From IMG/VR virus record IMGVR_UViG_3300025383_001098: a stretch of DNA of 64,000 bases; one strand, 5' to 3'. The notes under the pieces are model-generated. The model saw only the letters and a program-made list of their open reading frames with translations. It searched no databases and was not told where the DNA came from. A program made the translations under genes and the position numbers. Positions within the stretch are counted from its first letter, which is position 1, and each line of letters opens with the position of its first letter. This document shows, piece by piece, positions 30,624 to 47,810 of the stretch. This DNA is from a virus.

Positions 30624-30690
30624 TGTAGTGCCGATAGTCGGGCTACACATTTAAAGTCATTACTTGCTTAAAAAGGAGAAAACAAATGAC
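30624..30690 (+). promoter_or_regulatory. ROSE-like RNA thermometer leader
   Basis: 5' hairpin, then CUU(G)CUU pairing with the AAGGAG SD and GUCAUU pairing with AAUGAC over the start codon. Confidence 0.65.
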
Positions 30691-31144
30691 ACAATTACAA
30701 ATCCACACCCTTGACTTACCTAACTTTGTGAATCAAATTCACCGTCAGACCATTGGCTTTGATCGCATTTTTGACGAGCTAAATCGCAATTTTGTAAACA
30801 GCCGTGGCGACAATGGTAACTACCCTCCATACAATATCAGTAAATTAGATGATACTCACTATGTTGTAGAAGTTGCTGTTGCTGGCTTTAAAGAGTCAGA
30901 ACTTGACGTAGAACTCAAGGACAATGTTTTAACTGTTAAAGGTGAACAAGAAAAGAAAGAAGTAGAGATTGAATACTTACACAAAGGTATCAGTGCTCGT
31001 AACTTTGTTCGCACTTTCACTTTGGCCGATGATGTAGAAGTACGTGCGGCTACAGTTCAAAACGGTATTTTGGCAATCGCTTTGGAACATGTAATTCCAG
31101 AAGAAAAACAGCCAAAAAAGATTGCTATTACTTTCAAGAAGTAG
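30686..31144 (+). CDS. small heat-shock protein (Hsp20/IbpA-like)
   Basis: IGFDRIF, YPPYNI, EVAVAGF, YLHKGISARNF, NGILAI, PEEKQPKKI. Confidence 0.95.
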   Translation: MTQLQIHTLDLPNFVNQIHRQTIGFDRIFDELNRNFVNSRGDNGNYPPYNISKLDDTHYVVEVAVAGFKESELDVELKDNVLTVKGEQEKKEVEIEYLHKGISARNFVRTFTLADDVEVRAATVQNGILAIALEHVIPEEKQPKKIAITFKK

Positions 31145-31157
31145 TATAATCTACACA

Positions 31158-31185
31158 CAAGGGCAGAATCACCTGCCCTTGTTTT
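31158..31185 (+). terminator. stem-loop after hsp20 (terminator or 5' stabiliser)
   Basis: CAAGGGCAG-loop-CTGCCCTTG-TTTT; a TTGCTA-17-TATAAT promoter (31122-31150) lies just upstream. Confidence 0.6.
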
Positions 31186-31200
31186 ATAAATATTAATACT

Positions 31201-31515
31201 ATGGCAGACACTAAAACTCAAATTGAGATTCGTCCAAGCATTGCTCCTAAATCTGGACTTAAAGAACCTTCAAATTTTAATGTAATCTATATCAATGATG
31301 AAGTTACTACACAGGAATTTGTCATTGAAAGTCTTACATCTATTTTTAACTATGCCAGAGAATCTGCCGAAACACTGACTCTACGAGTACACGAAGAAGG
31401 GTCAGCTGTAGTAGCAACATTACCGTATGAAATGGCCGAGCAAAAAGGTATTGAAGTTACACTACTTGCTCGTAATCATGGATTTCCATTACAAGTTAAA
31501 ATAGAATCTGAATGA
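31201..31515 (+). CDS. clpS: ClpS N-end-rule adaptor
   Basis: FNVIYINDEVTTQEFV, VHEEGSAVV, EMAEQK, GFPLQVKIE. Confidence 0.9.
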   Translation: MADTKTQIEIRPSIAPKSGLKEPSNFNVIYINDEVTTQEFVIESLTSIFNYARESAETLTLRVHEEGSAVVATLPYEMAEQKGIEVTLLARNHGFPLQVKIESE

Positions 31516-33701: not shown

Positions 33702-34184
33702 ATGCGTTGTTTCAACAAGATTATTCTAATCATAATCGCCGGGTGGGCAAGTAGTACCTACGCCACTCCGATAAACGACTTTCAATTTAAAAGCCCAAGT
33801 TTAAACGGATCTGGATATGGCGCTTTCCAACTTGGCTTGGAAAACGAGCAATATACACGTCAGCAAGCCGTTGCGGCACAACTCAAAGCCGATGCTGTAG
33901 CAGCAGCTGCGGCAGCACAAAACACTCCCTTACAACAATTTCTAACTAACTTAGAGTCGCGTATCTACGCACAAATATCTCAAAACGTAGCTACAAGTAT
34001 GTTCAGTACCCCGGGACAAGTTCAGCCCGGTAGCATTGCCTTTGGCGCTGGAAATATAACTTGGGGACAGATTATCATGCCCGGCGGAGGCCAGGGAATA
34101 CAATTACACGTGTTTGATGGTATGAATATGACTACTATCAACGTGCCAATGGGCCAATTTACACCAGGCGGGGGCGGGCAATAA
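33702..34184 (+). CDS. csgF: curli assembly protein CsgF-like
   Basis: Signal peptide; FQFKSPSLNGSG (cf. CsgF F.F.NP.FGG); FLTNLESRIYAQIS; directly upstream of csgG. Confidence 0.8.
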   Translation: MRCFNKIILIIIAGWASSTYATPINDFQFKSPSLNGSGYGAFQLGLENEQYTRQQAVAAQLKADAVAAAAAAQNTPLQQFLTNLESRIYAQISQNVATSMFSTPGQVQPGSIAFGAGNITWGQIIMPGGGQGIQLHVFDGMNMTTINVPMGQFTPGGGGQ

Positions 34185-35488
34185 TGAAACGCTTATTAAT
34201 TTTATCCGCCTTGGTTGCTCTATTGTCTGGTTGTGCTGTTAGCCAGAAAGTGGGCCTCCTGGAAGAAAAACCAAAACTAATGAAACAGGAAATGGTCAAA
34301 GAACTTGATTCTGTTCCTCCTCCTCGTAACGGTAGATTAACTGTGGCGGTGTATAGTTTTGCTGATAAAACAGGACAACGTAAAGCAACCCCGGGAGTGG
34401 CAAGTTTTTCAACAGCAGTTACACAAGGTGGTGACGCATTGTTGATACGTGCTTTACAAGATGTTGGACGTGGCACTTGGTTTGACGTAGTTGAGCGCGG
34501 CGGATTAGATAATTTAACCAAAGAACGACTAATCATTACACAGATGCGACAGGCCTACGAAGGCAACAACGCACAAAAATTAATGCCTTTACAATTTGCC
34601 GGTATCTTAATTGAAGGCGGAATCATTGGATATGATTCAGGATTAGAATCTGGTGGTACAGGTTATAACTTCTTGGGCATTGGTCCCACAACACAATACA
34701 GCAAAGATGTAATCACAATCAGCCTACGTGCTGTAAGTGTAAACACAGGTAAGATATTAGCCACAGTAGCAGTTACAAAAACAGTTTATTCTACAGCAGA
34801 TGCTATTGCTATCTTTAAGAGTGTAGATCCAGGCGGAAGTATAAATGATTTAGTTAAACAAATTGGTGCGCCAAACACAGGAAGTCAAAGTTCTGTTGCT
34901 GCCATATTTCAATTTGAATCTGGTCTAACAGTCAACGAAGCAACTACTATTGCACTTAAGGCCGCTGTTGAAAGTAGTGTAGTTGAATTAATTAAAGAAG
35001 GCGAGCGTAAAGGGATATGGGAATATAAGTTTCCAATGACCCCAGACAAATCATGGTGGGATCTCAGCCGAGACGAAACAAAACCAGTGGCGGAAGTTAA
35101 AAAAGAAGAACCAAAAACACAGCCAGTGGTAGAAGTTAAAAAAGAAGAGCCAACAGTTGCACCAATTGGTCTAAAGAAAACAACCTTGGCTGATGCTACC
35201 AGAGTCTACTCTACCAAGTCAAATTTAAATGGGCCAAGTTACGGACCATATTTAATATATCCTAAGGATACAGTAGTACAGGTAGCACCAACAGAGTTTA
35301 ATGATGTTGTAGAAATAACAACCCCTAACGGTAAACGCGGTTATGTTAAATCTGCACAAATTAAAGAAGAAGTAGTTGTGCCAAAAACATCACCTAAATT
35401 GACTACGGAAGCAGTAATTCCGTTGAGTCAATCAAATAAGGCAGATGTTCCGGCAGATGTATCAGCAAAAGAAGGAGTATTAAAATAG
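34184..35488 (+). CDS. csgG: curli secretion channel CsgG lipoprotein with C-terminal extension
   Basis: Lipobox LLSGC; VAVYSFADKTGQRK, FSTAVTQG, WFDVVERGGLDNLTKER, IEGGIIGYD, LRAVSVNTG. Confidence 0.93.
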   Translation: MKRLLILSALVALLSGCAVSQKVGLLEEKPKLMKQEMVKELDSVPPPRNGRLTVAVYSFADKTGQRKATPGVASFSTAVTQGGDALLIRALQDVGRGTWFDVVERGGLDNLTKERLIITQMRQAYEGNNAQKLMPLQFAGILIEGGIIGYDSGLESGGTGYNFLGIGPTTQYSKDVITISLRAVSVNTGKILATVAVTKTVYSTADAIAIFKSVDPGGSINDLVKQIGAPNTGSQSSVAAIFQFESGLTVNEATTIALKAAVESSVVELIKEGERKGIWEYKFPMTPDKSWWDLSRDETKPVAEVKKEEPKTQPVVEVKKEEPTVAPIGLKKTTLADATRVYSTKSNLNGPSYGPYLIYPKDTVVQVAPTEFNDVVEITTPNGKRGYVKSAQIKEEVVVPKTSPKLTTEAVIPLSQSNKADVPADVSAKEGVLK

Positions 35489-35551
35489 GAGCAATACCGA
35501 TGGAGTAGTAGGAGCCATAGGACAAGGCCATAGGCCAAAGGAAAAAAGAAA

Positions 35552-36478
35552 ATGAAATATAGACTGGCAAGAATAATAACAATAATGCTTGGTCTTGTGT
35601 GTACAGGTGTTTATGCTGCTGATAACAGCATTTACATTAATCAAACAGGTAGCAATTCGACAATTAACATGACCCAGAATGGTGCGAGTAACGTTGTCGA
35701 GGGCATTCAGACAACCGGCTCGGGCCCAACCACGCCCGCAGTAATTACAGGTAATAATAACACAGTCAACGTAAGTCAAGTTGGTTCTGGCAATACTCTA
35801 CAGTTAGGTGTACAAACTGGTATAGCCAATAGTGGACAAAATACGGGTTCGGGATCAGGTAATAACTTTACCTACAACGTGACCGGTGACAATGCCACAG
35901 CCGTTATTAATAGTAATAATACAGGCACAGCAGGAGCGAGCTTGAGTAATAATGTTACTGTGAACCAAAGCGGTGATAATTCCAACTTGAATGTTAACCT
36001 ATTAGGGTCAAATAATAACTTTACAGCAACAACCAGCGGTGGTGCAAGCAATAGTGTAGTAGCTACTATCAAAGGCACCGGTACTAATGATACTATTAGT
36101 ATGACTGGCGGAGCAAGTAATAGTATGACTTTGAATCAAGGTGTAAACACTAACGTGGTAACAGGTACAAATGTAAACGTATCAAGTGTTGGTAGTAATA
36201 ACACTTATACATTAAACCAAGATGGTGGTACTAATGGTAACTCAATTACCATTGGTGGATATAATGCCACTGGTACAAACGTAAGTGGATCAGCAGTTGG
36301 CAATGGTAATACCTATACCGTGACACAGTCAGGTAGTTATGATAATACCTTGGTACTTGGTGTAACTGGTGGTAGCAATACCTTCGGCATTACACAAACA
36401 GCAACAGGCGGTAATAATGTAACTAACATTCAATCGAATGGTAGTAGCAACTCATGGACAATACACCAAACACGCTAA
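35552..36478 (+). CDS. curlin-repeat (CsgA/CsgB-like) protein
   Basis: Signal peptide, then many N-x-[ILV]-x-[ILV]-x-Q-x-G-x-x-N repeats; N/G/T/S-rich. Confidence 0.8.
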   Translation: MKYRLARIITIMLGLVCTGVYAADNSIYINQTGSNSTINMTQNGASNVVEGIQTTGSGPTTPAVITGNNNTVNVSQVGSGNTLQLGVQTGIANSGQNTGSGSGNNFTYNVTGDNATAVINSNNTGTAGASLSNNVTVNQSGDNSNLNVNLLGSNNNFTATTSGGASNSVVATIKGTGTNDTISMTGGASNSMTLNQGVNTNVVTGTNVNVSSVGSNNTYTLNQDGGTNGNSITIGGYNATGTNVSGSAVGNGNTYTVTQSGSYDNTLVLGVTGGSNTFGITQTATGGNNVTNIQSNGSSNSWTIHQTR

Positions 36479-36479
36479 T

Positions 36480-36650
36480 ATGGATAGACGTTTTTTGGAA
36501 ATAATGTATCAACAGTGGAGTCAGGGCATGACAGACTATGCTCACCGCTGGATAGATTTTGTGGAAATGGCTGCAAAGGTTAATGGAACCACAGCCGATC
36601 AAATAATGAAAGAGTTACAGAAATGCCATTGGTTTATAAAGGGAGACTGA
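36480..36650 (+). CDS. small hypothetical protein
   Basis: ATG 1 nt after the curlin stop; MDRRFLEIMYQQW. Confidence 0.45.
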   Translation: MDRRFLEIMYQQWSQGMTDYAHRWIDFVEMAAKVNGTTADQIMKELQKCHWFIKGD

Positions 36651-37780
36651 TATGGACGGGACTACTATGCGTACTCTTAGGGAGTATATCCACGAACTCC
36701 GACGCCGCGATCGGGACCATAACGGAACAGGTCAATACCCCTCCTTCGATACAACGGTCGAAGACGACTCTAACTGGGACCAAGGGGACCGGGGTGGAGA
36801 TGCAGGACAGCATCAACACAACAAAGGGTAAGGTTGGTATTGTATTTGCTGATGATACTAAGGTACAGGTAAATGAAAATTCTAAGCTGGTCATTGATGA
36901 GTTCGTATATGATCCAAAAAATAAAGACGCTGGTAAGCTGGCTCTTAACATGGCTTCTGGGACTGTTAGATATGCTTCTGGGGCAATCGCCCACAACAAT
37001 CCTAATAAGGTCGCTATCAATACTCCTACTGCTACTGTGGCTGTTAGAGGCACTGATTTTACTGCCACGGTCGACGAATTAGGCGAATCAACTGTAATTT
37101 TATTACCATCATGTCCACGCAAAGACATGATGCCGGACGAAATAGAACGCCTGTGCAAGACTGGAAAGATAGATGTCATCAACGATGCCGGCACAGTCAC
37201 CCTGGACCAACCATTCCAAGGCACCAAGGTAACAGCACGTAACGTACCTCCAACTCGTCCTGCTGTACTACGCCTAAATGAAGATGGCATCAGCAACATC
37301 TTGATCCTTGCACCTCCCCAGGAAATCAAAAACGCTCTACGCCAACGTGAAGAAGAAAAGCAAATGGCGGTGTCAGCACTCAGCCAAAACTTCCTACAGG
37401 GTGTTGACCTTGGTAGCGTACTTGCTGCACAAAACGCTACCTTTATGAGTAACGCATTACAACGTAACTTCTTAGATCAAGACTTTTTAGCAAACATATT
37501 AACATTATTGAATGAACAGTTGGCACAGGAATTTGGTAACTTATTAGCACCAAAGACCAATGGTATATTGCCAGACTACAAAGCCAGCACTGGTGTGGTA
37601 GCTACAGTTGATCCTATTAATGTTACATTATGTCGAACAGATTCTGGTAATAATACAAGTTGTATTATGACGCCACATGGACAGAATTCAACTGTTACAC
37701 AAACACAAAGCGAAAACGTTGCCATTAAAAATCGTATTAATCAAGGTGGCAACACTATTATAAACATAAAGCAGAACTAA
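36623..37780 (+). CDS. exported FecR-domain protein with curlin-like C-terminus
   Basis: DSINTTKGKVGIVFADDTKVQVNENSKLVID, INTPTATVAVRGTDF; ends NSTVTQTQ...NQGGNTIINIKQN. Confidence 0.85.
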   Translation: MPLVYKGRLIWTGLLCVLLGSISTNSDAAIGTITEQVNTPPSIQRSKTTLTGTKGTGVEMQDSINTTKGKVGIVFADDTKVQVNENSKLVIDEFVYDPKNKDAGKLALNMASGTVRYASGAIAHNNPNKVAINTPTATVAVRGTDFTATVDELGESTVILLPSCPRKDMMPDEIERLCKTGKIDVINDAGTVTLDQPFQGTKVTARNVPPTRPAVLRLNEDGISNILILAPPQEIKNALRQREEEKQMAVSALSQNFLQGVDLGSVLAAQNATFMSNALQRNFLDQDFLANILTLLNEQLAQEFGNLLAPKTNGILPDYKASTGVVATVDPINVTLCRTDSGNNTSCIMTPHGQNSTVTQTQSENVAIKNRINQGGNTIINIKQN

Positions 37781-39255
37781 TGAAACGCATATTAATTATA
37801 TTCTTTCTGCTAATCACAATTGGTCTTGGTGTTCACAGTCAAGACGTAGATGCCAGCGGAGTAGCCGGATGGAACTATACCACCTACTATGGTGGCGGAG
37901 CAAGTCCAAGTATTACCAACAGAACTGTAGATACTACAGGTGTAACCACATCAATCAACTACAACTGGGGCGGCGGATTAGTATTAGATAGTGGTTTATA
38001 TGACGGAGTTATCATACACTTTCAAGGATACTTGCGAGCACCTATCACAGGTACCTATCAATTTGGAGTGGCCAGCGATGATGGCAATCAGCTGACTATC
38101 AACAATACTGTGATAACAGCCTGTTGGTGCGAACAAGGTACTACATTTAGATCGGGCAGTATCTATCTCACAGCCGGACAAATAGTACCAGCGGATATTT
38201 GGTATTATGAAAACGGTGGAGGTGCCGCTGTACAGTTTTATTGGTATACCAATGGATCGTGGCAAATAGTACCTACATCAATGATGGCCACGTCAGCCAG
38301 CTACTGGGGACCAAGTATAACTGGCACAGGCACCGGAACAGTTACTACAACAAGTACAAGTGGATCAATCACATCAACATATAGCCAACCAGTGACCATT
38401 ACGTATTACAGTGACGGAACACAAACTACTGCCAACAACGGAGTAGCCACATTGATCAGTACCACTGATACTGGTGGGTCGTTGACTATCACCGCTACAC
38501 AACAACAAATGGTCAACACCGTTGCGTCAAGAATGCCCGGCTTAGGTGATAACAGCATCTACATAACGCAGACTGGTAATAGCGATACAATTAACATTAC
38601 ACAAAAAGGCGCCGGAAATAAAATAGATGGTGCCACAAGTACAGCCAATGGGCCAGGGTACACTACAGCCGCTCCTATTACTGGAGGCGGGAATCACATT
38701 ACGGTGCGGCAACAATCAAACAACAATTTGATTGATCTTGCGGCTTTAGGTGGTAATAATACCCTTAATTTAAATCAAGGTACAGATGCTAACGGAAACT
38801 CAACTGGCTTAGACACCGGCGGACACTATCAATTTGACTATGTTAATGGTGCAGGTAACACGCTGACTGTAGTACAAGAAAACACCGGCCTTAATGCTGG
38901 ACAATTTAGTAGCGTGGCCATAGTTGGAAACTTAAACACCGTAGGGATTACACAAACTGGCACAGCTCGTAATCAGTTGTTTGCTACAGTATCAGGCAAT
39001 AGTAACTCAATAACTACAAGCCAAACAGGAACCAGTGCAGGTTATATTAACATTAATGCAACTGGTAATGGTAACTCTGCGGTAGTGAATCAATCAAACA
39101 CTGGAGCCAGTGGCACTAATAATGCTTCGATAACATTAATCAATAATGGATCTCCGGCCAGTGTAAATTTAACACAAACTGGTGGACAGAATTATTCAGT
39201 AACACAATCATGCGCCACTGCCTGTGGAACTGTAACAGTAAGACAAGGAAATTAA
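37780..39255 (+). CDS. PA14-domain + curlin-repeat protein
   Basis: PA14 INYNWGGG, FQGYLRAPITGTYQFGVASDDG, WYYENGGGA; then repeats NSIYITQTGNSDTINITQKG etc. Confidence 0.85.
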   Translation: MKRILIIFFLLITIGLGVHSQDVDASGVAGWNYTTYYGGGASPSITNRTVDTTGVTTSINYNWGGGLVLDSGLYDGVIIHFQGYLRAPITGTYQFGVASDDGNQLTINNTVITACWCEQGTTFRSGSIYLTAGQIVPADIWYYENGGGAAVQFYWYTNGSWQIVPTSMMATSASYWGPSITGTGTGTVTTTSTSGSITSTYSQPVTITYYSDGTQTTANNGVATLISTTDTGGSLTITATQQQMVNTVASRMPGLGDNSIYITQTGNSDTINITQKGAGNKIDGATSTANGPGYTTAAPITGGGNHITVRQQSNNNLIDLAALGGNNTLNLNQGTDANGNSTGLDTGGHYQFDYVNGAGNTLTVVQENTGLNAGQFSSVAIVGNLNTVGITQTGTARNQLFATVSGNSNSITTSQTGTSAGYININATGNGNSAVVNQSNTGASGTNNASITLINNGSPASVNLTQTGGQNYSVTQSCATACGTVTVRQGN

Positions 39256-39260
39256 TTAAT

Positions 39261-39449
39261 ATGATATCATTTAAAATGAGTAAATGGGTACGCTTAGATG
39301 AAGCAGATGACATTAGTCTATACGTACAAAAAATTGGTGGCTACTACGAAGTACACAGACATGACATTGAATTCTATGTACCAGTTGAATACAGAGATTT
39401 TATGTTAATTAAATATCCGTTGTTAGACGAGGTGGCTTATGTTTATTAA
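39261..39449 (+). CDS. small hypothetical protein
   Basis: AAGGA SD; IEFYVP motif. Confidence 0.55.
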   Translation: MISFKMSKWVRLDEADDISLYVQKIGGYYEVHRHDIEFYVPVEYRDFMLIKYPLLDEVAYVY

Positions 39450-39633
39450 ACTATTGGTACAAATTGCTGGCGGACTATTTGGATTCTTTGTTGCCTATCT
39501 AATGTATCGTATTGTCGAACGACCATACGAACGTAGCACAGAGGAAGCTCGAATCAAGTACGAAGCAGAGATGGCAGAAATACGCCGACGGAAAGAACAA
39601 CTGCATCGCAATAAAAAGTCAATTTTTAATTGA
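39439..39633 (+). CDS. small single-TM protein
   Basis: GAGGTG SD; hydrophobic N-terminus. Confidence 0.55.
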   Translation: MFIKLLVQIAGGLFGFFVAYLMYRIVERPYERSTEEARIKYEAEMAEIRRRKEQLHRNKKSIFN

Positions 39634-39642
39634 TAAATAAAA

Positions 39643-39709
39643 GTGCGGGCACAAGATAAGGTGTCGCTGGAATCCGTAACCAGTGCTAAAGGACCGAAAG
39701 GTCCTTTTT
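39643..39709 (+). ncRNA. candidate small structured RNA
   Basis: Lies between TAAATA (39634-39639) and a GAAA-loop terminator; two short stems and a possible UGCGGG/UCCGUA pseudoknot; no ORF. Confidence 0.35.
39688..39709 (+). terminator. intrinsic terminator
   Basis: AAAGGACC-GAAA-GGTCCTTTTT. Confidence 0.85.
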
Positions 39710-39728
39710 CTTTGTCACAATTTTCTGG

Positions 39729-39757
39729 TTGACACGTAATAAATACTATGTTACAGT
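39729..39757 (+). promoter_or_regulatory. sigma70-type promoter
   Basis: TTGACA-17-TACAGT with TGn extension. Confidence 0.55.
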
Positions 39758-39787
39758 TATATTACAGTAACCGGAAAGGAGTAAGCT

Positions 39788-39946
39788 ATGAAACAAAGCA
39801 AATTAGTGCGTAAAGTGTATCAGGCTTGCTTCGACCACGATGCCGAGAAACAGCTGGAACTTCGCAAGAAGGAATACGCTAAAATCTTGAAACACAAGGC
39901 CGAAGGCAAACCATTTGACACAAAATGGACAGTAGTACAGATTTAA
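39788..39946 (+). CDS. small basic protein (52 aa, not in ORF track)
   Basis: AAGGAG SD; [18 protein letters not shown]... Confidence 0.65.
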
Positions 39947-39958
39947 CAAAATTGTAAT
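39941..39958 (+). promoter_or_regulatory. Pho-box-like direct repeat
   Basis: ATTTAAC-AAAA-TTGTAAT (11-nt period) upstream of the plcP-like gene. Confidence 0.4.
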
Positions 39959-39991
39959 ACTTCAACTACCCATTGGGCGGTAAATACGTAT

Positions 39992-40768
39992 ATGGAACGT
40001 ACTTACCGCTCAATTTTTGTATCCGACATACACTTTGGCACCAGAGACTGTAAGGCCGACGAACTCAATAATTTTCTTAAACACAACACTTGTGAGACTC
40101 TTTACTTAGTAGGCGACATCATTGACGCTTGGAAGATTCAACAAAACAAGTGGCGGTGGAAACAGAGCCATACCAATGCTATCAGACGTATATTAGGTCA
40201 CGCCAAACGTGGAACTCGAGTAGTGTATATAGCTGGCAACCATGACGAATTCCTTCGTCCACTGATACCATATGGTATGGGATTTGGTCGCGTGGAAATA
40301 GTAAATCAAACAGAACACACAGGCGTAGATGGTCGGACATACTTAGTTACACACGGAGATTTGTTTGACGGCATTACACGATTAGCACCGTGGCTAAGTT
40401 TCTTAGGTGATAAATTATATGATTTTGTGCTTGATCTTAATAGTCGTTTTAATTGGCTACGACATCGTCTGGGCTTTGGTTATTGGAGTCTGTCTAAGTT
40501 TCTTAAACATAGGGTCAAAAAGGCCGCCGACTTCATGTTCCAGTTCGAACGAAACTTAGCTGCTTATTGTAAGAAGCGTGGGTTTGATGGTGTTATATGT
40601 GGACATATACATCACGCTGAAATCAAAGAAATTGATGGTGTTGCGTATATGAATGACGGAGATTGGGTCGAGTCAATGACAGCCTTAGTTGAACATCATG
40701 ATGGCCGGTGGGAGATAGTAACCTGGACTCGAGCAAATGACCAAGACAATATTAGTAATAACAGATAA
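39992..40768 (+). CDS. plcP: PlcP-type phospholipase C (LpxH-like metallophosphoesterase)
   Basis: YRSIFVSDIHFGTRDC, LYLVGDIID, GNHDEFLR, HGDLFD, YWSLS, CGHIH, NDGDWVES; paired with GT4. Confidence 0.8.
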   Translation: MERTYRSIFVSDIHFGTRDCKADELNNFLKHNTCETLYLVGDIIDAWKIQQNKWRWKQSHTNAIRRILGHAKRGTRVVYIAGNHDEFLRPLIPYGMGFGRVEIVNQTEHTGVDGRTYLVTHGDLFDGITRLAPWLSFLGDKLYDFVLDLNSRFNWLRHRLGFGYWSLSKFLKHRVKKAADFMFQFERNLAAYCKKRGFDGVICGHIHHAEIKEIDGVAYMNDGDWVESMTALVEHHDGRWEIVTWTRANDQDNISNNR

Positions 40769-41735
40769 TGTTCCAGACCAAATCAATGGAGTGGTCACAA
40801 CTTTCAAGAACTTGGAAGATTGTGCTCGCAGTGACGGGTATCGTGTTGTTTATTGTGATCCCGGGCAGTTCCCTAATTTTGCTTGCCCTGGCTATCCTGA
40901 AGTTCGCCTCTGTTGGCCGCACGGTATCAGTAAAAAAATTAAAGCGATACAGCCAGATTTTATACACATCGCTACGGAAGGGCCTGTAGGCCTATTTGCA
41001 AGGTGGTGGTGTGAGCGCAATCATATTCCTTATAATACTTCTTATCATACTGATTTCCCCGAGTTCTTAAAGACAATGTATGGGGTACCTAAGTCGTTGA
41101 CCTATTGGTACTTGCGTTGGTTTCATAAGAACAGTCATCGAGTATTAGTTACTACAAAGACCATAGAAGCGGATTTAGCCTCGCACGGTTTTACAAATAT
41201 GGTTATATGGACTCGTGGTGTTCGCAGAGACATAGAGCCCAGCGTTCCTTGGTGCGAAAATCGTTCAAAACCAATGTTACTTAATGTAGGTCGTGTCAGC
41301 GCCGAAAAAGGTCTATCAAATTTAGTAGAATTTGACCCAACCGAATATACCGTGGTTGTTGTAGGTGAAGGTCCATATATGAGTCGTGCCAGAGAGCTAC
41401 TACCTGATGCCAAATTTGTAGGATATAAATCTGGGCAAGAATTGGTAGATTATTACAATCAAGCAGATGTATTTGTTTTCCCCAGCCAAGCAGATACGTT
41501 TGGATTAGTTATTATAGAAGCAATGGCACAGGGTTGTCCTGTAGCAGCATTTCCTGTACAAGGTCCTATAGATATCATAGAACAAGGTGTAAATGGTTAC
41601 ATGGATTGGGATTTGGAATTGGCAGTTAAACAATGTTTGACATTAGATAGAGATCAAGTTAAAATATCAAGTGAGCGTTGGACTTGGTCCGAATGCTGGC
41701 GTATATTTCGAGAAAATTTAGCAGAAATCAAGTAG
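40737..41735 (+). CDS. GT4 glycosyltransferase (Agt-like glycolipid synthase)
   Basis: ITDNVPDQINGVVTT, IHIATEGPVG, TSYHTDFPE, VGRVSAEK, FPSQADTFGLVIIEAMA. Confidence 0.9.
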   Translation: MTKTILVITDNVPDQINGVVTTFKNLEDCARSDGYRVVYCDPGQFPNFACPGYPEVRLCWPHGISKKIKAIQPDFIHIATEGPVGLFARWWCERNHIPYNTSYHTDFPEFLKTMYGVPKSLTYWYLRWFHKNSHRVLVTTKTIEADLASHGFTNMVIWTRGVRRDIEPSVPWCENRSKPMLLNVGRVSAEKGLSNLVEFDPTEYTVVVVGEGPYMSRARELLPDAKFVGYKSGQELVDYYNQADVFVFPSQADTFGLVIIEAMAQGCPVAAFPVQGPIDIIEQGVNGYMDWDLELAVKQCLTLDRDQVKISSERWTWSECWRIFRENLAEIK

Positions 41736-41749
41736 TAAAAGGAAGTAAC

Positions 41750-41902
41750 ATGTTTGTATTAGAATACCTGGCGATAGGTTTTATAACAGTCTTTGGGTGG
41801 AATTCAGGACAGGCAGTTTGGGATAAGTATGTAGACATACCCCAGGCAGAACAGTCTCAAAAGTCAACCGGTAGTAAGAATGACACAAGAAGCAAAATCT
41901 AA
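41750..41902 (+). CDS. small membrane protein
   Basis: AAGGA SD before ATG 41750. Confidence 0.5.
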   Translation: MFVLEYLAIGFITVFGWNSGQAVWDKYVDIPQAEQSQKSTGSKNDTRSKI

Positions 41903-42002
41903 AACGTGGTTAGACAAGTTTGAAAGAGTAGTAGATAACATACTGCGTATACTATGGTTGATATTATTAATTGGATGGATAGTTAATAATCATCAATTAT
42001 GA
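41880..42002 (+). CDS. small membrane protein (40 aa, not in ORF track)
   Basis: MTQEAKSKTWLDKFERVVDNILRILWLILLIGWIV; ATGA overlap with the next gene. Confidence 0.45.
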   Translation: MTQEAKSKTWLDKFERVVDNILRILWLILLIGWIVNNHQL

Positions 42003-42646
42003 AAACCATTGCCTTATTCATAGCCGATCCCAAATGCTCAGTACAAAGTGCAAACGGTATCATGCAAGCACTGGGAAATAATTTCCGTTACAAGATATTC
42101 AGTAAAAATGCCTTAGAGGACAGTTTCTTTGATTCTGTTGATCTAATTGTGGTACCCGGCGGCTTTGGCGATGCTGATAGTTTTGATACCCTGTTCAAAT
42201 ATAATAAAACCCGTGTTAAAGAATTTATAAAAAGTGGTGGCCAGTACCTGGGAATTTGTATGGGTGCGTATTGGGCAGGCCAACATTACTTTGATATATT
42301 AGACCAAGTGGATGTTGTGCAGTACATAACACACCCCAGTACTTGTACACGTAGGCCACACGCTAAAAATATTGCCACTGAGTGGTACGGTGGGCACTAT
42401 CAAGACATGTTCTTTTACGATGGGCCTACCTTTGTCGGGCCAGGCAATTATCGTACTATAGCCACATACGCCACAACTGGGTTGCCCATGGCCATACAGC
42501 AAGGCAACATAGCGTTAATTGGGTGCCATCCCGAAAGCGAGCAATTTTGGTATGACAATTATAGCTGGATGAAAGGCAAATACCATAACGGCCAACATCA
42601 CGAAATATTAAAGGACTTTGTAGAAGAACTCATAATAAATACTTGA
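41999..42646 (+). CDS. BPL-N / class I glutamine-amidotransferase-like protein
   Basis: VPGG, YLGICMGAY, FYDGP, GCHPE (Cys-His-Glu triad). Confidence 0.8.
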   Translation: MKTIALFIADPKCSVQSANGIMQALGNNFRYKIFSKNALEDSFFDSVDLIVVPGGFGDADSFDTLFKYNKTRVKEFIKSGGQYLGICMGAYWAGQHYFDILDQVDVVQYITHPSTCTRRPHAKNIATEWYGGHYQDMFFYDGPTFVGPGNYRTIATYATTGLPMAIQQGNIALIGCHPESEQFWYDNYSWMKGKYHNGQHHEILKDFVEELIINT

Positions 42647-44697
42647 TGTTCAAAAAAATATTAACCAGTCCATGGACGGCATTATTAACATTAGCACTTG
42701 TTCTAAGTATAAGAATTGCAGATCCTACATTTATAGAAAGCGTAAGACTACGTTATTTTGATACTTTAGTAACAAGTCGAGCACCAGAAACAATTGGTGT
42801 AAGTGTAGTAAACATTGATGAAAAAGCCCTGGAAAAATATGGGCAATTCCCTTTTTCAAGAGACATATATGGAAAAATTATTAGCGATTTGTACCGTCGC
42901 AATGCGGGCCTTGTTGTATTTAATATTCTCACTCCTGATCGTGATCGCCTTGGTCGAGATGCGGATTATATAGCCTCACTACGCCAATACCCAACGATCC
43001 TGCCCAGTGTAGGTAGCACACAAACTCGTAACACGCCGAGAGCACCGGGATCAGTAGTAATTGGTCCATACGGCTTAGATACATTTGTAACATACCCTGG
43101 ACTTATTGCCAACATACCCGGTGTTGAATCGGCAGCTGCAGGTGTTGGTATTACTAACACACTTCCTGAAGTTGATGGAGTCGTACGTCGTATGCCGTTG
43201 GTGGTTGCCTATAATGGCAAACTATATCCAAGCCTGGCAATGGAAACACTTCGTGTTGCTGGTGCAGACTCAACTGTACAGATCAAGGTAAATGAGAATG
43301 GCGTTGAGAAAATGCGTATTCCCAAGTTTGGTCCTGTTACTACAGATAGTTTATCACGAATCTGGATTGACTGGTCATTGGTTCCAGAACATTATAGTTT
43401 AACTGATTTACCTCAAGATTTTGATGGTGATATAGTTATTGTTGGAGTATCAGCGCAGGGACTTGCTAATCCTGTTGCTACAAGTCGAGGCGAAATATTG
43501 CCACAAGATTTACAAGCAAGTGTACTGGGTACTGTAATTGCCAATCGAGATCGACCTGTTATTACCAGACCTGATTGGGCCGAAGGCGGAGAAGTAATTC
43601 TGTTAGCTGTTATTGGTGTTCTATTAATCTTTTTGTCAAGGTGGACTTATGTTGGACTTCTTAGTGCAGTTGTTATTATTGGTGGTAGTATTCCCCTTTC
43701 TAATTATTTGTATTCGGCTAATGCTTGGCTTGTCGACATTACTGGTTTGGTTGGTGGGCTTGTTCTTGTTGCTCTCCATGTTTACGGGGTCAAATTTGTA
43801 AGTGAGTTCTTACAAAAGCAAGCAATTAAGAAACAGTTTGCTGGCTATTGCAGTAAAGAAGTAGTAGAGATGCTACAAAAAGATCCAGACCTAATCAAGC
43901 GTGGTGTACGTAAAGACGTGTCAGTTATGTTCTCAGACTTGCGTGGGTTTACACCTATTGGTGAACACTATGGTGATGATGTTGCTGGCTTAGGCAAGTA
44001 CATGAACGGCTACATGGATGCTATCAGTCAACCTATGTTAGACAACAAAGGTATGATTATTAAGTATGTAGGTGACGCATCGATGCACATACACGGTGCT
44101 CCTATTGAAGACCCTAACCATGCTCATACTATCGTTAAAGTTGGTTTAGAGATGTTAGATGCGGTAGACGAGTATACCAAGATTATGGAAGCACAGGGCC
44201 TGCCTCCTGCCGCAATGGGTTGGGGCTGTAACTCAGGTATTGGCTTTATTGGTGAGATGGGGTCAACTGACCGTCACAGCTATGACATCTTAGGCGACAT
44301 GGTAAGCACAGCCGCACGTTTAGAAGCTCGTTGTAAGGCTTATGGTGTGCTATGTATCATCGGTGCTGAAACTTACAATCGTACTAAAGACGACTTTTTC
44401 TACTTGTTGTTAGATAACTTACAGCCTAAAGGTAAAACTGTAGCTGACTTGATTTATACAGCACTACGTACACGTGGTGTTGATTACACAAAAGATCGAG
44501 AGCAACACGAAGCGATGCATGCCTTATATCGAGCTAAAAAGTTTGATGAAGCAGCCGCAATGTGTAAAAAGTTAGTGGGAAATTTTGGTGGGCAAATGGA
44601 TAAGTATTACAAGATCTGGATCGAACGTTGTGAGTTTATGAAACAACAAGATTTACCAGACAATTGGAATGGCGAATTCATAGCTCACGAAAAATGA
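42646..44697 (+). CDS. CHASE2-domain membrane adenylate/guanylate cyclase (class III)
   Basis: TM; CHASE2 (VVNIDEKALEKYGQFPFSR, DGVVRRMPL); 3 TM; cyclase MFSDLRGFT, IKYVGDA, YDILGDMVSTAARLE. Confidence 0.93.
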   Translation: MFKKILTSPWTALLTLALVLSIRIADPTFIESVRLRYFDTLVTSRAPETIGVSVVNIDEKALEKYGQFPFSRDIYGKIISDLYRRNAGLVVFNILTPDRDRLGRDADYIASLRQYPTILPSVGSTQTRNTPRAPGSVVIGPYGLDTFVTYPGLIANIPGVESAAAGVGITNTLPEVDGVVRRMPLVVAYNGKLYPSLAMETLRVAGADSTVQIKVNENGVEKMRIPKFGPVTTDSLSRIWIDWSLVPEHYSLTDLPQDFDGDIVIVGVSAQGLANPVATSRGEILPQDLQASVLGTVIANRDRPVITRPDWAEGGEVILLAVIGVLLIFLSRWTYVGLLSAVVIIGGSIPLSNYLYSANAWLVDITGLVGGLVLVALHVYGVKFVSEFLQKQAIKKQFAGYCSKEVVEMLQKDPDLIKRGVRKDVSVMFSDLRGFTPIGEHYGDDVAGLGKYMNGYMDAISQPMLDNKGMIIKYVGDASMHIHGAPIEDPNHAHTIVKVGLEMLDAVDEYTKIMEAQGLPPAAMGWGCNSGIGFIGEMGSTDRHSYDILGDMVSTAARLEARCKAYGVLCIIGAETYNRTKDDFFYLLLDNLQPKGKTVADLIYTALRTRGVDYTKDREQHEAMHALYRAKKFDEAAAMCKKLVGNFGGQMDKYYKIWIERCEFMKQQDLPDNWNGEFIAHEK

Positions 44698-44861
44698 TCA
44701 TTGATAAGTTAATTGACACGTATGTATGGTGGTTTTTGCAGATATATTTTTTGCCATATCGTTTGCCCGAGTACGGCACAGAAGTAGACAAGTGGGTTAG
44801 TACGTTCAGTCTAAACGGTGTCAAGAGCTCGAACCTTTGCAAGCCCGAAGCGTCTAAGTAG
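44694..44861 (+). CDS. possible small membrane peptide
   Basis: ATGA overlap with the cyclase stop; YVWWFLQIYFLPY; overlaps the desaturase 3' end. Confidence 0.3.
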   Translation: MIIDKLIDTYVWWFLQIYFLPYRLPEYGTEVDKWVSTFSLNGVKSSNLCKPEASK

Positions 44862-45524
44862 TTGTATATACGTCCAACCTAAATCCCACTCCCACGGTTT
44901 CATTGATAATTTAGCACTGGCAGGATCTGCATGGTGATTGTTGTGTAGTTCTTCGCCGCCAATAAAGAATGCCCAGGGTACAATGTTAGTTGAGTAGTCA
45001 TTGGTCTTAGTATTGCGATAACCCCACCAATGCCCGAAGCCGTTAATAACACCTGCGGCCCATAAGGGAATCCAAATCATTTGCCATAGCCAAGGCAACC
45101 AACCCCAAGCCCAGCCAAATATAGCAGAATTAATAAAAAACATTAACACAATGCCTGCAAAGTTAAATGGTGTGTAGATATGCTTTTCAACCCAATCATC
45201 GGGTGTACCTACTCCGTACTGTTCAACCATTTGACGATCTTTAGCGGCATCGGCATAGTAAAATGCACCACCTAAGAATATTTGCCAGATACCGTATACA
45301 CGTGGGCTATGAGGATCACCTTCTCCGTCGGTAAATCTGTGATGTTTACGATGTATAGCCACCCATTGCTTGGTAACCATACCAGTTGTTAACCACAACC
45401 AAAAACGCATAAAGTGTTCTATATAAGGATGAAATGTAACTGAACGATGTGCTTGACTACGATGTAAGTAAAGGGTAACGCAGGCAATGGTGATGTGAGT
45501 CATCACCAGGATGTATATTAACAT
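44811..45524 (-). CDS. membrane acyl-CoA/fatty acid desaturase (DesA/delta9-like)
   Basis: His boxes HRSQAH, HRKHH, HNNHH; GDPHSP; GHWWGYRN. Confidence 0.93.
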   Translation of the reverse strand: MLIYILVMTHITIACVTLYLHRSQAHRSVTFHPYIEHFMRFWLWLTTGMVTKQWVAIHRKHHRFTDGEGDPHSPRVYGIWQIFLGGAFYYADAAKDRQMVEQYGVGTPDDWVEKHIYTPFNFAGIVLMFFINSAIFGWAWGWLPWLWQMIWIPLWAAGVINGFGHWWGYRNTKTNDYSTNIVPWAFFIGGEELHNNHHADPASAKLSMKPWEWDLGWTYIQLLRRFGLAKVRALDTV

Positions 45525-45530
45525 TGCGAA

Positions 45531-45749
45531 TTAAGCGTAGCTGTCTGATTGAGCAACTACGATAGGTTCTGGATTAACAGATTGTACAGAGTGTACTAAT
45601 TGATTATGTTCGTTATAGATTTTAGCGGCATGGTGATCGCCATTGTTAACGAATTCCATTGCTTCGGCTAAACTATCAAATGCTGCAGCAATAGTGTCTA
45701 ACTGACCATTAACCCATTTATGTAATTTTACTCTATGTTTTTTAGACAT
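45531..45749 (-). CDS. hypothetical protein
   Basis: AAGGA SD before the ATG of MSKKHRVK. Confidence 0.6.
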   Translation of the reverse strand: MSKKHRVKLHKWVNGQLDTIAAAFDSLAEAMEFVNNGDHHAAKIYNEHNQLVHSVQSVNPEPIVVAQSDSYA

Positions 45750-45762
45750 GATTATTATCCTT

Positions 45763-46815
45763 TTAAGTAAAGTATTTAGCCCAAGTTTTGCGTGTTGCAT
45801 CGGTGTAAGCTGTTAAACTCCATTGATTGGATTTGACATTTATACGGGGCCAATTATAGGATAATTCTAATTTTCGAGCAATATCTGCACTACTATTAGG
45901 ATCTGCACAGAACCCATGTACTGCCCAGGGAATTTCTTCTGCTGTGCCAATAAGCGGAACACCTTGACTAATAATGTCAGCACCTACAATATTAAATGTC
46001 TCACTAAAACTTACCTGCATGCCTATGTCCATTTGTCCGCATAATTCTAAGAACTGCTCACGTGGAGTCCACTGATGATTAACAAGTTCGTGTCCATGAT
46101 CTGAAATCTGCTGGAATAGGCCTTTTAGATTGTTTAATGCTGGACCGCCTTGCATTTCAATGCGTCCTGCGTTAACGTGAAATCGTAATCGTTTACCAAT
46201 TTTCTCAGCAAATTCCATAGCACCAAATGCCTGTAGTAAATGATTTTTAAGTGGGCGTACTGCACCAAAGCAACCAATATCTACCCAATCTTTATTGCGG
46301 TTGAATTTTTTTGTTTTATATTCTTGTGGATAAAAGTTAGGAAGATATATTACACGCTCTTCGGTTGTTTTATCATCCCACTGATTTAAGTGTTGTAAGT
46401 ATAACCGTGTCTCACGTAACATACGTGGTGCATTACAGGCAATAACAATGTTGTCAAAACGACTATAATCGCCCAACCAATCCATTGCGTTACCTTCACC
46501 GGCCATGAATGGCATTTCTGAGTGTAGGCGAATAATCCAGGTTACTCCAGGATGTAATCGTTGTAATACTGTAAATTTACTTGGAACTACCCAAAGTGCC
46601 TCAATGATACAATGTGTGGGCTTATGAGCAGTTACTAAACGGTCGATGCAATTATTATCAATGGCAACTTCTAAAACGCTGTCAATATTTGATTCTGTTA
46701 ACATATTGTTAACAAAGCTGGCAGAATTAAATAGGCCTGTTGATAAGCCTATGTGAGAATGCAAGACTGCTTGATAGTCTTCTCGACGTTTTAGAATGAA
46801 TAATACTTTGGACAC
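45763..46815 (-). CDS. putative GT-B glycosyltransferase
   Basis: IGCFGAVRPLKN and SETFNIVGADII (GT4-like E-x7-E/D). Confidence 0.65.
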   Translation of the reverse strand: MSKVLFILKRREDYQAVLHSHIGLSTGLFNSASFVNNMLTESNIDSVLEVAIDNNCIDRLVTAHKPTHCIIEALWVVPSKFTVLQRLHPGVTWIIRLHSEMPFMAGEGNAMDWLGDYSRFDNIVIACNAPRMLRETRLYLQHLNQWDDKTTEERVIYLPNFYPQEYKTKKFNRNKDWVDIGCFGAVRPLKNHLLQAFGAMEFAEKIGKRLRFHVNAGRIEMQGGPALNNLKGLFQQISDHGHELVNHQWTPREQFLELCGQMDIGMQVSFSETFNIVGADIISQGVPLIGTAEEIPWAVHGFCADPNSSADIARKLELSYNWPRINVKSNQWSLTAYTDATRKTWAKYFT

Positions 46816-46868
46816 AGGTCACCTTATTGATTTAACACATCTATTTATCAAAAAGTGATTTTTAAAAT

Positions 46869-46886
46869 ATTACAATTAGATTAACC
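46869..46886 (-). promoter_or_regulatory. Pho-box-like direct repeat
   Basis: Minus strand GGTTAAT-CTAA-TTGTAAT upstream of the GT-desaturase operon. Confidence 0.35.
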
Positions 46887-47210
46887 AGTGCCGCCTGATG
46901 CTTCTTGTTCGTCTGAAGTTGTAGTTTTGTCTACTTTGTTGATCTGTTTCTCGGCTTCAACACGTTCGTGTTCGATAGTTTTACCACGTAGATGTAAAAC
47001 TGTGTTGACCTTTTGATTTAAACGGATAAGATCGTTATCCAACATGCGGATACGATCAATAAGAGCAATAAGAACTGTATTGGCGTCAGAGATAACTGGC
47101 TTAACTTCTGTCGTGGCCCACTTCCAAACATAGTGGATAATGTAGCCCATGCCAACTGCCATAACAATCGGAAAGCCATACTTATTAACTAACTCTGCTA
47201 TATCGCCCAT
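46881..47210 (-). CDS. small membrane protein, holin-like (TM + coiled coil)
   Basis: KYGFPIVMAVGMGYII; LIDRIRMLDNDLIRL. Confidence 0.65.
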   Translation of the reverse strand: MGDIAELVNKYGFPIVMAVGMGYIIHYVWKWATTEVKPVISDANTVLIALIDRIRMLDNDLIRLNQKVNTVLHLRGKTIEHERVEAEKQINKVDKTTTSDEQEASGGTG

Positions 47211-47219
47211 AATTTATCC

Positions 47220-47810
47220 TTAGAACCAAAGCAATACACCTTGGCTACTTAATAGTACGCCAAGACCTGCTACTAAAAAGCTGGACCAGAACAGGCTCAT
47301 GCTAACAGCTAAGATACTTGCTGATAACAATACGATTGCCATTTGATATGCAGTTGACGCATAACCAATCCAAGGGCTACGCTTCTTAGCTTCGTCACGA
47401 TCGTGTTCTAACTTTTGTGCCTTGGCTAATAATTCTTTCTTGCCTTCGCCAGACTTAGGGTCACTTTCGTAACGTTCGATCTTGGCTGTCATTTCTGCTA
47501 CACGAGCCCGGTCGCCAGCTTTCTGTGCATCATACAATGATTGCTCTGCCAGCGATTGCTTAATCGACTTGGCCTGATAGAAACTGTAAACGTCGTTGGC
47601 TTTGATTGTATTGTTTAATACTGTAGAACTTAGAGAGCCGCCGTACCAAGCATTAACCGCAAGTAATAACGCAAACACGTTAATAACCATACCTGCTTTG
47701 TCTTTGATCTTTGCTTCACGTTCTGAACGTGAGCCCACCGGAGGCTTAGGTGCGTCGGGATCTTTTGGTGTTTTATTGATTAAGTTTAACACTGAGTCTA
47801 ATAATGCCAT
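47220..47810 (-). CDS. DUF4337-like membrane protein
   Basis: TM, YSFYQAKSIKQ, coiled coil, QMAIVLLSASIL, TM. Confidence 0.7.
   Translation of the reverse strand: MALLDSVLNLINKTPKDPDAPKPPVGSRSEREAKIKDKAGMVINVFALLLAVNAWYGGSLSSTVLNNTIKANDVYSFYQAKSIKQSLAEQSLYDAQKAGDRARVAEMTAKIERYESDPKSGEGKKELLAKAQKLEHDRDEAKKRSPWIGYASTAYQMAIVLLSASILAVSMSLFWSSFLVAGLGVLLSSQGVLLWF

Follow-up and report, generated by a model that had tools for sequence, protein, structure and literature searches.

A viral type VIII secretion (curli) module with a FecR-domain protein and a predicted CHASE2 adenylate cyclase in an uncultured phage lineage

The window analyzed here is a stretch of 64,000 nt from the virus record IMGVR_UViG_3300025383_001098 of IMG/VR (127 kb; CheckV completeness, 35%). 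It contains a plus-strand cassette with csgF, csgG, two genes of curlin-type subunits, a FecR-domain gene located between these two, and a CHASE2 cyclase gene. Judged by its genes, the cassette is an intact copy of a module known from the literature, the viral type VIII secretion system (T8SS, curli)–FecR–adenylate cyclase (AC) module. The module is common as well as already published, and this copy leaves the overall picture essentially as it was. We consider it fairly probable that this module, which is split by cargo genes in the window, combines a fibre pore with FecR–CHASE2 sensing that sets cyclic AMP (cAMP). This reading was built on gene content, domain identities, conserved synteny, catalytic residues, and the pairing of FecR with CHASE2 in bacteria. 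The six genes are as follows (TM, transmembrane helix).

33702-34184, + strand: csgF, exported CsgF-family protein (Pfam PF10614, 38.9 bits; cut-off 25.8)
34184-35488, + strand: csgG, outer-membrane lipoprotein pore (Pfam PF03783, 142 bits)
35552-36478, + strand: curlin-repeat subunit 1, 308 aa, N/T/G/S-rich (family profile against CsgA structures)
36623-37780, + strand: exported FecR-domain protein (Pfam PF04773, 42.2 bits)
37780-39255, + strand: second curlin subunit (curlin 2), PA14 head, T/S-rich linker and curlin-type β-solenoid (residues 258-491) (Pfam)
42643-44697, + strand: TM-CHASE2-3TM-class III adenylate cyclase (Pfam CHASE2, 123.8 bits; Guanylate_cyc, 52.7 bits)

The original prediction had named these genes from the letters alone. 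All of them were recovered at the coordinates given there by Pfam or by profile comparison with the CsgA structure 8c50, the five envelope proteins with signal peptides, and the cyclase was located 3.39 kb further on. In the proposed mechanism, the CsgG lipoprotein pore and CsgF would assemble in the outer membrane of the infected Gram-negative cell. The pore would export two phage-made curlin-type β-solenoid subunits, one of them with a PA14 glycan-binding head. The FecR-fold protein, once exported, would pair in the periplasm with the CHASE2 domain of the cyclase in the inner membrane to form a sensor, like the bacterial versions with kinase, phosphatase, or cyclase outputs, so that the envelope or fibre state would set cAMP synthesis in the infected cell. 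A contact between FecR and CHASE2, a link from the fibre to FecR, and a downstream effect of cAMP would be the connecting steps.

Related loci were collected as viral contigs carrying CsgG (23 loci, 40–99% CsgG identity), and the window proteins were compared with them by tblastn. csgF was beside csgG in all 23 loci. FecR followed csgFG in 19 of the 19 loci that extended far enough, and the CHASE2 cyclase did so in 12 of 12, with CsgG identity down to 41%. The check proposed along with the original prediction, co-occurrence of the cyclase with the csg and FecR genes in related phages, thus came out positive. From this gene order, we take the csg–FecR–cyclase linkage to be real and not due to chance. 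In L009 and L017/18, the cyclase is immediately 3′ of curlin 2; in L011 and L020, it is no more than 0.4 kb away. The FecR gene always has a curlin gene on each side and shares an overlap with the second of these (window, HTVC008M, and Melnitz). In the window, the csgF stop overlaps the csgG start, and the FecR stop overlaps the start of the PA14-curlin gene. The cyclase is 4.9 kb downstream of FecR in the window, whereas only curlin 2 separates the two genes in L009 and L017/18.

The order csgF–csgG–curlin–FecR–curlin–cyclase was also present in two cultured phages, Pelagibacter phage HTVC008M (KC465899) and Methylophilales phage Melnitz (MZ577098), and is given that way in their GenBank annotations. 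The premise of the original prediction that only CsgF and CsgG were known in marine myophages was therefore wrong: both phages carry the same six genes, and the cluster has been described (PMC9599517). The "curli operon" of pelagimyophages was first noted in 2020, when "sibling capture" was proposed (PMC7029224). In 2022, the CsgGF pore of Melnitz was modeled and a role in lysis timing was proposed (PMC9004378). In the same year, a cluster of T8SS genes with FecR, histidine kinase, and an adenylate cyclase, lacking CsgE, was reported in podo- and myo-pelagiphages; its genes were found at all 65 GOV2.0 stations and transcripts were detected (PMC9599517). In the published phage accounts FecR is described as an iron regulator, and CHASE2, PA14, and the FecR C-terminal domain are unmentioned.

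The window shares its gene order and the lack of CsgE with HTVC008M and Melnitz; the identities of its proteins to their homologues are 38% for CsgG, 37–41% for FecR, and 35–44% for the cyclase. HTVC008M likewise carries a PA14 head on curlin 2. The differences are an uncultured jumbo T4-like carrier, probably from a lake, three cargo genes before the cyclase, and a 150-aa C-terminal extension of CsgG in the window. The upstream histidine kinase belongs to the podovirus version only; none is encoded upstream in the window, and the myovirus versions (HTVC008M and Melnitz) do not have this feature.

CsgG of the window matched E. coli CsgG (3x2r) with an E value of 1.9e-42 and retained the lipobox LSGC and the Phe of the constriction loop. 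Two other positions of this loop differ from E. coli (N to S and Y to T). After the core (residues 1-285) come a K/E/P-rich linker, for which a tandem repeat of 39 nt at 35076-35153 codes, and a C-terminal domain of ~90 aa, in which an SH3_2 match was weak (E 0.042). Neither E. coli CsgG nor that of pelagiphages has the 150-aa extension (window 35051-35488), and its length among the relatives ranges from 0 to 155 aa. CsgF has its role in surface nucleation, not in the pore. Signal peptides were judged by eye from the translations, and a Sec-type signal was seen at the N-terminus of all five envelope proteins, from csgF through PA14-curlin.

CsgE (PF10627) was not found in the 127-kb record, which is ~35% of the genome, and the E. 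coli control was positive. CsgD and CsgC/H were not among the annotated neighbours, with no search aimed at either. The claim of a phage-borne pore that comes with its own substrates and without CsgE thus stood, as the set is complete with a pore and two curlins. Compared with bacterial curli (E. coli csgBAC/csgDEFG and P. korlensis CsgA 8c50), the window has the same CsgG lipoprotein pore, CsgF, and secreted curlin-repeat subunits, and in both cases one subunit is a "plain" β-solenoid and one is accessory. The window system differs in that it is phage-encoded, has a lectin-type head on its second subunit and an exported FecR inside the operon, and is accompanied by neither CsgE nor a regulator that binds cyclic nucleotide monophosphates (cNMP) in the 127-kb record.

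Subunit 1 repeats an N-x-h-x-h-x-Q-x-G unit. It had no Pfam match above the cut-off, and its Curlin_rpt score was sub-threshold (14.8 bits; cut-off 20.7). Its family profile matched CsgA of Pontibacter korlensis (8c50) with an E value of 6.6e-15 and CsgA of E. coli (8enq) with an E value of 0.021. Subunit 1 is a candidate for the major fibre subunit. The second subunit matched PA14 (54.3 bits) and GLEYA (33.7 bits) in Pfam, and its C-terminal half passed Curlin_rpt (22.0 bits; cut-off 20.7). Residues 257-491 were modeled as strand-turn-strand units in a regular stack, for which the best match among structures was CsgA 8c50 (Z 19.6, 198 residues, root-mean-square deviation (rmsd) 8.5; VIA-align wide). 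Foldseek with the PA14-curlin model gave no significant PDB match; the predicted local distance difference test score (pLDDT) of the N-terminal half was below 50.

PA14 heads were found on curlin 2 in the clade of the window and in HTVC008M, and no head was recognisable in others. In L020 (13321-15003) and L021 (13374-15047), an F5/8 type C (discoidin, galactose-binding-like) domain replaces PA14. The second subunit carries swappable lectin-type heads. The curlin subunits would form fibres, with the PA14 head possibly at the fibre tip (or base).

These proteins bear on two other explanations. CsgG and CsgF might be a pore only, acting without fibres as a gated secretin/pinholin-like lysis timer, as for Melnitz, or as a cofactor uptake channel. 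Such roles have been proposed (PMC9004378, PMC7029224, and PMC9599517). They would agree with the CsgE gate not being found in the 127-kb record, with the changed constriction loop (N to S and Y to T), and with Melnitz cultures that showed no clumping. However, two exported CsgA-like substrates (E 6.6e-15 and Z 19.6) are always co-encoded with the pore, and CsgF, which serves surface nucleation and not the pore, is always kept. Moreover, the lectin-type heads of curlin 2 (PA14 and F5/8 type C) make sense only extracellularly. We consider a pore without fibres unlikely.

The curlin-repeat proteins might instead be decorations or fibres of the virion, not displayed by the cell. The block abuts tail or baseplate genes in HTVC008M and Melnitz, and β-helical proteins are common in phage tail spikes, many of which were among the structural matches. 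However, all of these proteins have Sec signal peptides and an outer-membrane export pore is encoded alongside. The adjoining tail genes of HTVC008M and Melnitz are on the opposite strand, and the neighbours in the window are metabolic or envelope genes. A virion role is thus very improbable, and display by the infected cell is the reading that we carry forward.

The FecR-domain protein was modeled using AlphaFold 2. The model has a FecR fold (residues ~30-215), a low-confidence linker (218-312), and a C-terminal β domain (~320-385). The N-domain matched the periplasmic signalling domain of PupR (CCSSD, 6ovk) with a Z score of 15.6 over 136 residues (rmsd 2.5). The FecR fold comes directly after the signal peptide; the protein has neither a TM anchor nor an anti-sigma domain for the cytoplasm. 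Neither an extracytoplasmic function (ECF) sigma factor (Sigma70_r2) nor a TonB-dependent receptor was found in the 127-kb record. Because of this layout and the missing partners, the phage FecR does not appear to be an iron regulator. In FecIRA and PupIRB signalling, a FecR fold is likewise periplasmic and FecR/PupR reads the state of an outer-membrane protein, an analogy for a trans-envelope relay; the phage protein differs in having no anti-sigma domain or TM, and the record in having no ECF sigma factor or TonB-dependent receptor.

The C-domain of FecR consists of ~65 residues in six strands (pLDDT ~80). Searched with its profile, 1.84 billion representatives yielded only 160 clusters, nearly always matched at the extreme C-terminus. 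A FecR domain was at the same place in all 10 full-length carriers of the C-domain, and the CHASE2-linked FecRs of bacteria had no C-domain of the phage type. By these comparisons, the C-terminal β domain is private to phage-type FecRs. It ends in h-x-h-x-Q-x, as both curlin families do. A curlin repeat was tried as an explanation of the C-domain and rejected: the hhalign probability was 5%, and four profile matches with multiple stretches were unrelated repetitive proteins. The adhesin retention domain 5ix9 was also rejected as a match of the C-domain, since VIA aligned it to residues 27-123, in the N-domain. That alignment (window 36623-37000) covered 73/76 residues with a Z score of 7.3 and an rmsd of 2.2; it is middling and serves as a lead only. 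5ix9 is the cell-surface anchoring (retention) domain of the Marinomonas ice-binding RTX adhesin, which plugs an outer-membrane pore from the periplasm.

Bacterial genomes were scanned with the profile of the FecR family, which gave 69 bacterial loci whose neighbours within 10 kb were inspected. In 28 loci, a CHASE2 protein was encoded no more than 10 kb from the FecR homologue, and CsgG was near it in none of the 69. A CHASE2 protein with cyclase output was immediately adjacent to FecR in a Deltaproteobacteria and a Spirochaetales metagenome-assembled genome (MAG). Cultured Pelagibacter has a CHASE2 protein with a PP2C phosphatase output in a tight operon with FecR. In Pelagibacter sp. HIMB1746 (L062, 6223-11314) and similar HIMB and single amplified genome loci, the operon encodes CHASE2-PP2C (SpoIIE domain), an unknown protein of 538 aa, and a protein with a FecR domain. 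SAR11, the clade that hosts the marine versions of the module, therefore owns a FecR–CHASE2 pair.

Similar pairs have been reported. The BiofilmReg operon of Burkholderia combines FecR with a CHASE2 protein of kinase output (PMC5192318), Campylobacterota have a CHASE2 cyclase cluster with FecR (PMC9239204), and cyaD1-smc02177 of S. meliloti is a FecR-domain/CHASE2 pair (PMC5498481). The claim that bacterial CHASE2 proteins are often encoded beside FecR was borne out by the scan and by these three reports. FecR stays with CHASE2 while the output changes, as is classically seen in sensor pairs. That the pair is bacterial and has several outputs also argues against the published iron-regulator reading. 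The phage and bacterial pairs share an exported FecR-domain protein beside a TM-CHASE2-3TM signalling protein, in several cases with cyclase output; they differ in that the bacterial FecRs have no phage-type C-domain and are never beside CsgG in the 69 loci. The most fitting reading of the FecR/CHASE2 half of the phage module is an envelope-sensor pair borrowed from bacteria.

A more specific arrangement can be imagined, in which FecR is a trans-envelope tether. Its C-domain would dock to CsgG/CsgF or the fibre base, its linker would span the periplasm or pore, and its FecR domain would gate the cyclase. Fibre assembly, or load on the lectin-bearing fibre when it touches another cell, a particle, or a phage that superinfects, would in this way be turned into cAMP, which would retune the infected cell. 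We regard this tether as speculative and rather unlikely.

The cyclase has one N-terminal TM, the CHASE2 domain, a hydrophobic block of ~3 TMs, the catalytic domain, and a conserved C-terminal extension of ~100 aa. It is the sole CHASE2 protein of the record. In an alignment of phage homologues, D432, R434, K474, D478, and R559 were invariant, and D548 was kept. Both metal-binding Asp residues, the adenine-specifying Lys474/Asp548 (Thr in two copies), and the transition-state Arg were conserved in 14 phage copies. The enzyme has five of the six canonical residues of class III adenylate cyclases (D432, D478, K474, D548, and R559); the sixth, the transition-state Asn, is Ser. The adenylate-type residues are kept, and the enzyme is predicted to be an adenylate cyclase, probably active.

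Identity to L016 is 61% in the CHASE2 half of the cyclase and 97% in its catalytic half; compared with L011, the values are 82% and 50%. The catalytic and C-terminal half shares 96–97% identity with its counterparts in L016 and L020, two loci in which CsgG identity is just 47–59%. Among 91 pairs, divergence of the CHASE2 half tracked that of CsgG and FecR (r ~0.6), whereas that of the catalytic half did not (r ~0.15). The cyclase gene is a domain mosaic, which suggests recombination inside the gene, and the pattern fits a periplasmic half that is tied to the csg/FecR genes.

The segment between PA14-curlin and the cyclase contains two small open reading frames (ORFs) and three cargo genes with predicted functions.

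39210-39449, + strand: small soluble conserved ORF (in L002-L007 and L011, between curlin 2 and the cyclase)
39439-39633, + strand: small single-pass membrane protein (N-terminal hydrophobic helix)
39688-39707, + strand: terminator-like hairpin at the end of the block from csgF to the small ORFs (8-bp stem and T run; consensus match only)
39992-42646, + strand: cargo insertion of three genes (Pfam and NCBIfam), namely
39992-40768, + strand: LpxH-like Metallophos protein (Pfam/NCBIfam)
40737-41735, + strand: GT4 glycosyltransferase (Pfam/NCBIfam)
41999-42646, + strand: GATase1/BPL_N-like protein, overlapping the cyclase start (Pfam/NCBIfam)

The true start of ORF 39210-39449 is probably an internal ATG. 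In L011, homologues of the two small ORFs (39210-39449 and 39439-39633) are the only genes between curlin 2 and the cyclase, the homologue of 39439-39633 being directly upstream of the cyclase. The Metallophos–GT4–GATase cargo is absent from L009, L011, L017, and L021, and other cargo is present instead in L004 and L007. Because the cyclase follows curlin 2 directly or within 0.4 kb in several relatives, the three genes are an insertion into a cargo slot. The Metallophos protein was also considered as a cAMP phosphodiesterase; this was rejected, as its best matches were of the LpxH type.

This slot, which separates the small TM gene from the cyclase (window 39640-42646), is a cargo hotspot, and all of its contents are envelope or surface related. 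In L004 (15400-20120), it holds a RimK-type ATP-grasp protein and an Ig/Calx-beta protein; ATP-grasp is also found in L016 (13907-16819). In L007 (15199-17223), it holds a 674-aa protein with an autotransporter β domain. The GATase1/BPL_N-like protein adjoins the cyclase on either side, with an upstream overlap in the window and a downstream position in L020 (17221-17865), where the homologue (58% identity) directly follows the cyclase and is the sole cargo gene.

Promoter-like sites were found before the cargo genes and before the GATase–cyclase pair. Given these sites and the terminator-like hairpin at 39688-39707, the csg–FecR block and the cyclase part are probably separate transcripts, with the limit that the counts of promoter and terminator consensus matches in the window were not above those in shuffles.

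This arrangement raises the alternative that two independent modules share a variable "envelope island". The curli-type genes would serve adhesion or aggregation, and the FecR/CHASE2 cyclase would sense another periplasmic cue, with no information flow between them. Cargo, the hairpin, and promoter-like sites separate the halves in the window, exchange of the cyclase's catalytic half has occurred without regard to the csg genes, bacterial FecR–CHASE2 pairs work without CsgG (0 of 69 loci), and AC is optional in podovirus versions (PMC9599517). However, in all lineages, pelagimyophages and jumbo phages included, FecR is embedded between the curlin genes with translational coupling to the second, its private C-domain is not seen in the bacterial partners, and the cyclase is present in 12 of 12 loci despite CsgG divergence down to 41%. 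Two unconnected modules are possible, but we doubt it.

A single module in which the fibre pore and the FecR–CHASE2 pair set cAMP is still the reading that we prefer, and several observations weigh against it. In the window, the cyclase is 3.39 kb away from PA14-curlin, behind the terminator-like hairpin and promoter-like sites. The likeness of the FecR C-terminus to curlin spans only ~10 residues (hhalign probability 5%, last 10 columns). At the transition-state Asn position of the cyclase, the window and 11 of 13 aligned homologues have Ser, whereas L009 and L033 have Asn; every copy has Ser except the two with Thr at the adenine-specifying Asp. The 127 kb encode no cNMP-binding protein. The correlation between CHASE2 and CsgG divergence could be produced by recombination breakpoints and gene order alone. 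AC is not always present in podovirus versions (PMC9599517), and Melnitz-infected cells showed no clumping (Buchholz et al., PMC9004378). A complex prediction of CHASE2 (24-335) with FecR (29-225), with alignments as input, scored 0.00; it was run without controls and gives no verdict either way.

The record is viral, as its 127 kb encode a DnaB-like helicase, a ribonucleotide reductase, and a tail protein. Gp23 and the T4 portal were not found in the 127-kb fragment and were found only in a 280-kb relative. Since this relative has the same cassette and a T4-type Gp23 capsid gene, the carrier lineage is assigned from its genes to uncultured jumbo T4-like phages. A megablast of the region against GenBank phages gave no match. 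The closest MAG-binned fragments have lake-type names and one Polynucleobacter label, and the phage probably inhabits lakes rather than the sea.

In bacterial genome contigs, CsgG, FecR, and the cyclase occurred together only on short, low-GC MAG contigs (L028-L036), labeled Pelagibacter, Flavobacteriaceae, Luteolibacter, Rhodobacteraceae, Polynucleobacter, Legionellales, and Pirellulales. L030, the contig examined in depth, encodes a T4 clamp loader, ligase, and nuclease. A full cassette in a bacterial genome was therefore rejected for L030, a mis-binned phage, and on the strength of this case L028-L036 are probably all phage contigs mis-binned into bacterial MAGs.

Upstream of csgF are genes for HSP20, ClpS, a cytidylyltransferase, an unknown protein, and an exoribonuclease. 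The phage HSP20 small heat-shock protein and the ClpS adaptor (window 30686-31515) each have a T4-late-type TATAAATA motif before them (30612 and 31185). Seven such motifs occur in the window, all on the + strand; none is directly 5′ of csgF, and their count in the window was not above shuffles. Downstream of the cyclase, the minus strand at 44811-47810 encodes a fatty-acid desaturase, two unknown proteins, and a DUF4337 protein. One of the unknown proteins has 350 aa and is ~70% conserved in relatives, and the region is further membrane-related cargo adjoining the module.

The module extends beyond the marine phages of SAR11/OM43 and is fixed also in a giant T4-like phage lineage. New relative to the published picture are the reading of FecR and CHASE2 as a pair, the private C-domain of FecR, the swappable lectin-type heads, and a mosaic cyclase with adenylate-type residues. 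If FecR were indeed a tether, the phage module would also supply, for the first time, a ligand logic that applies to CHASE2 domains generally. The function of the viral curli module has been a question since 2020, and the FecR/CHASE2 reading makes it testable.

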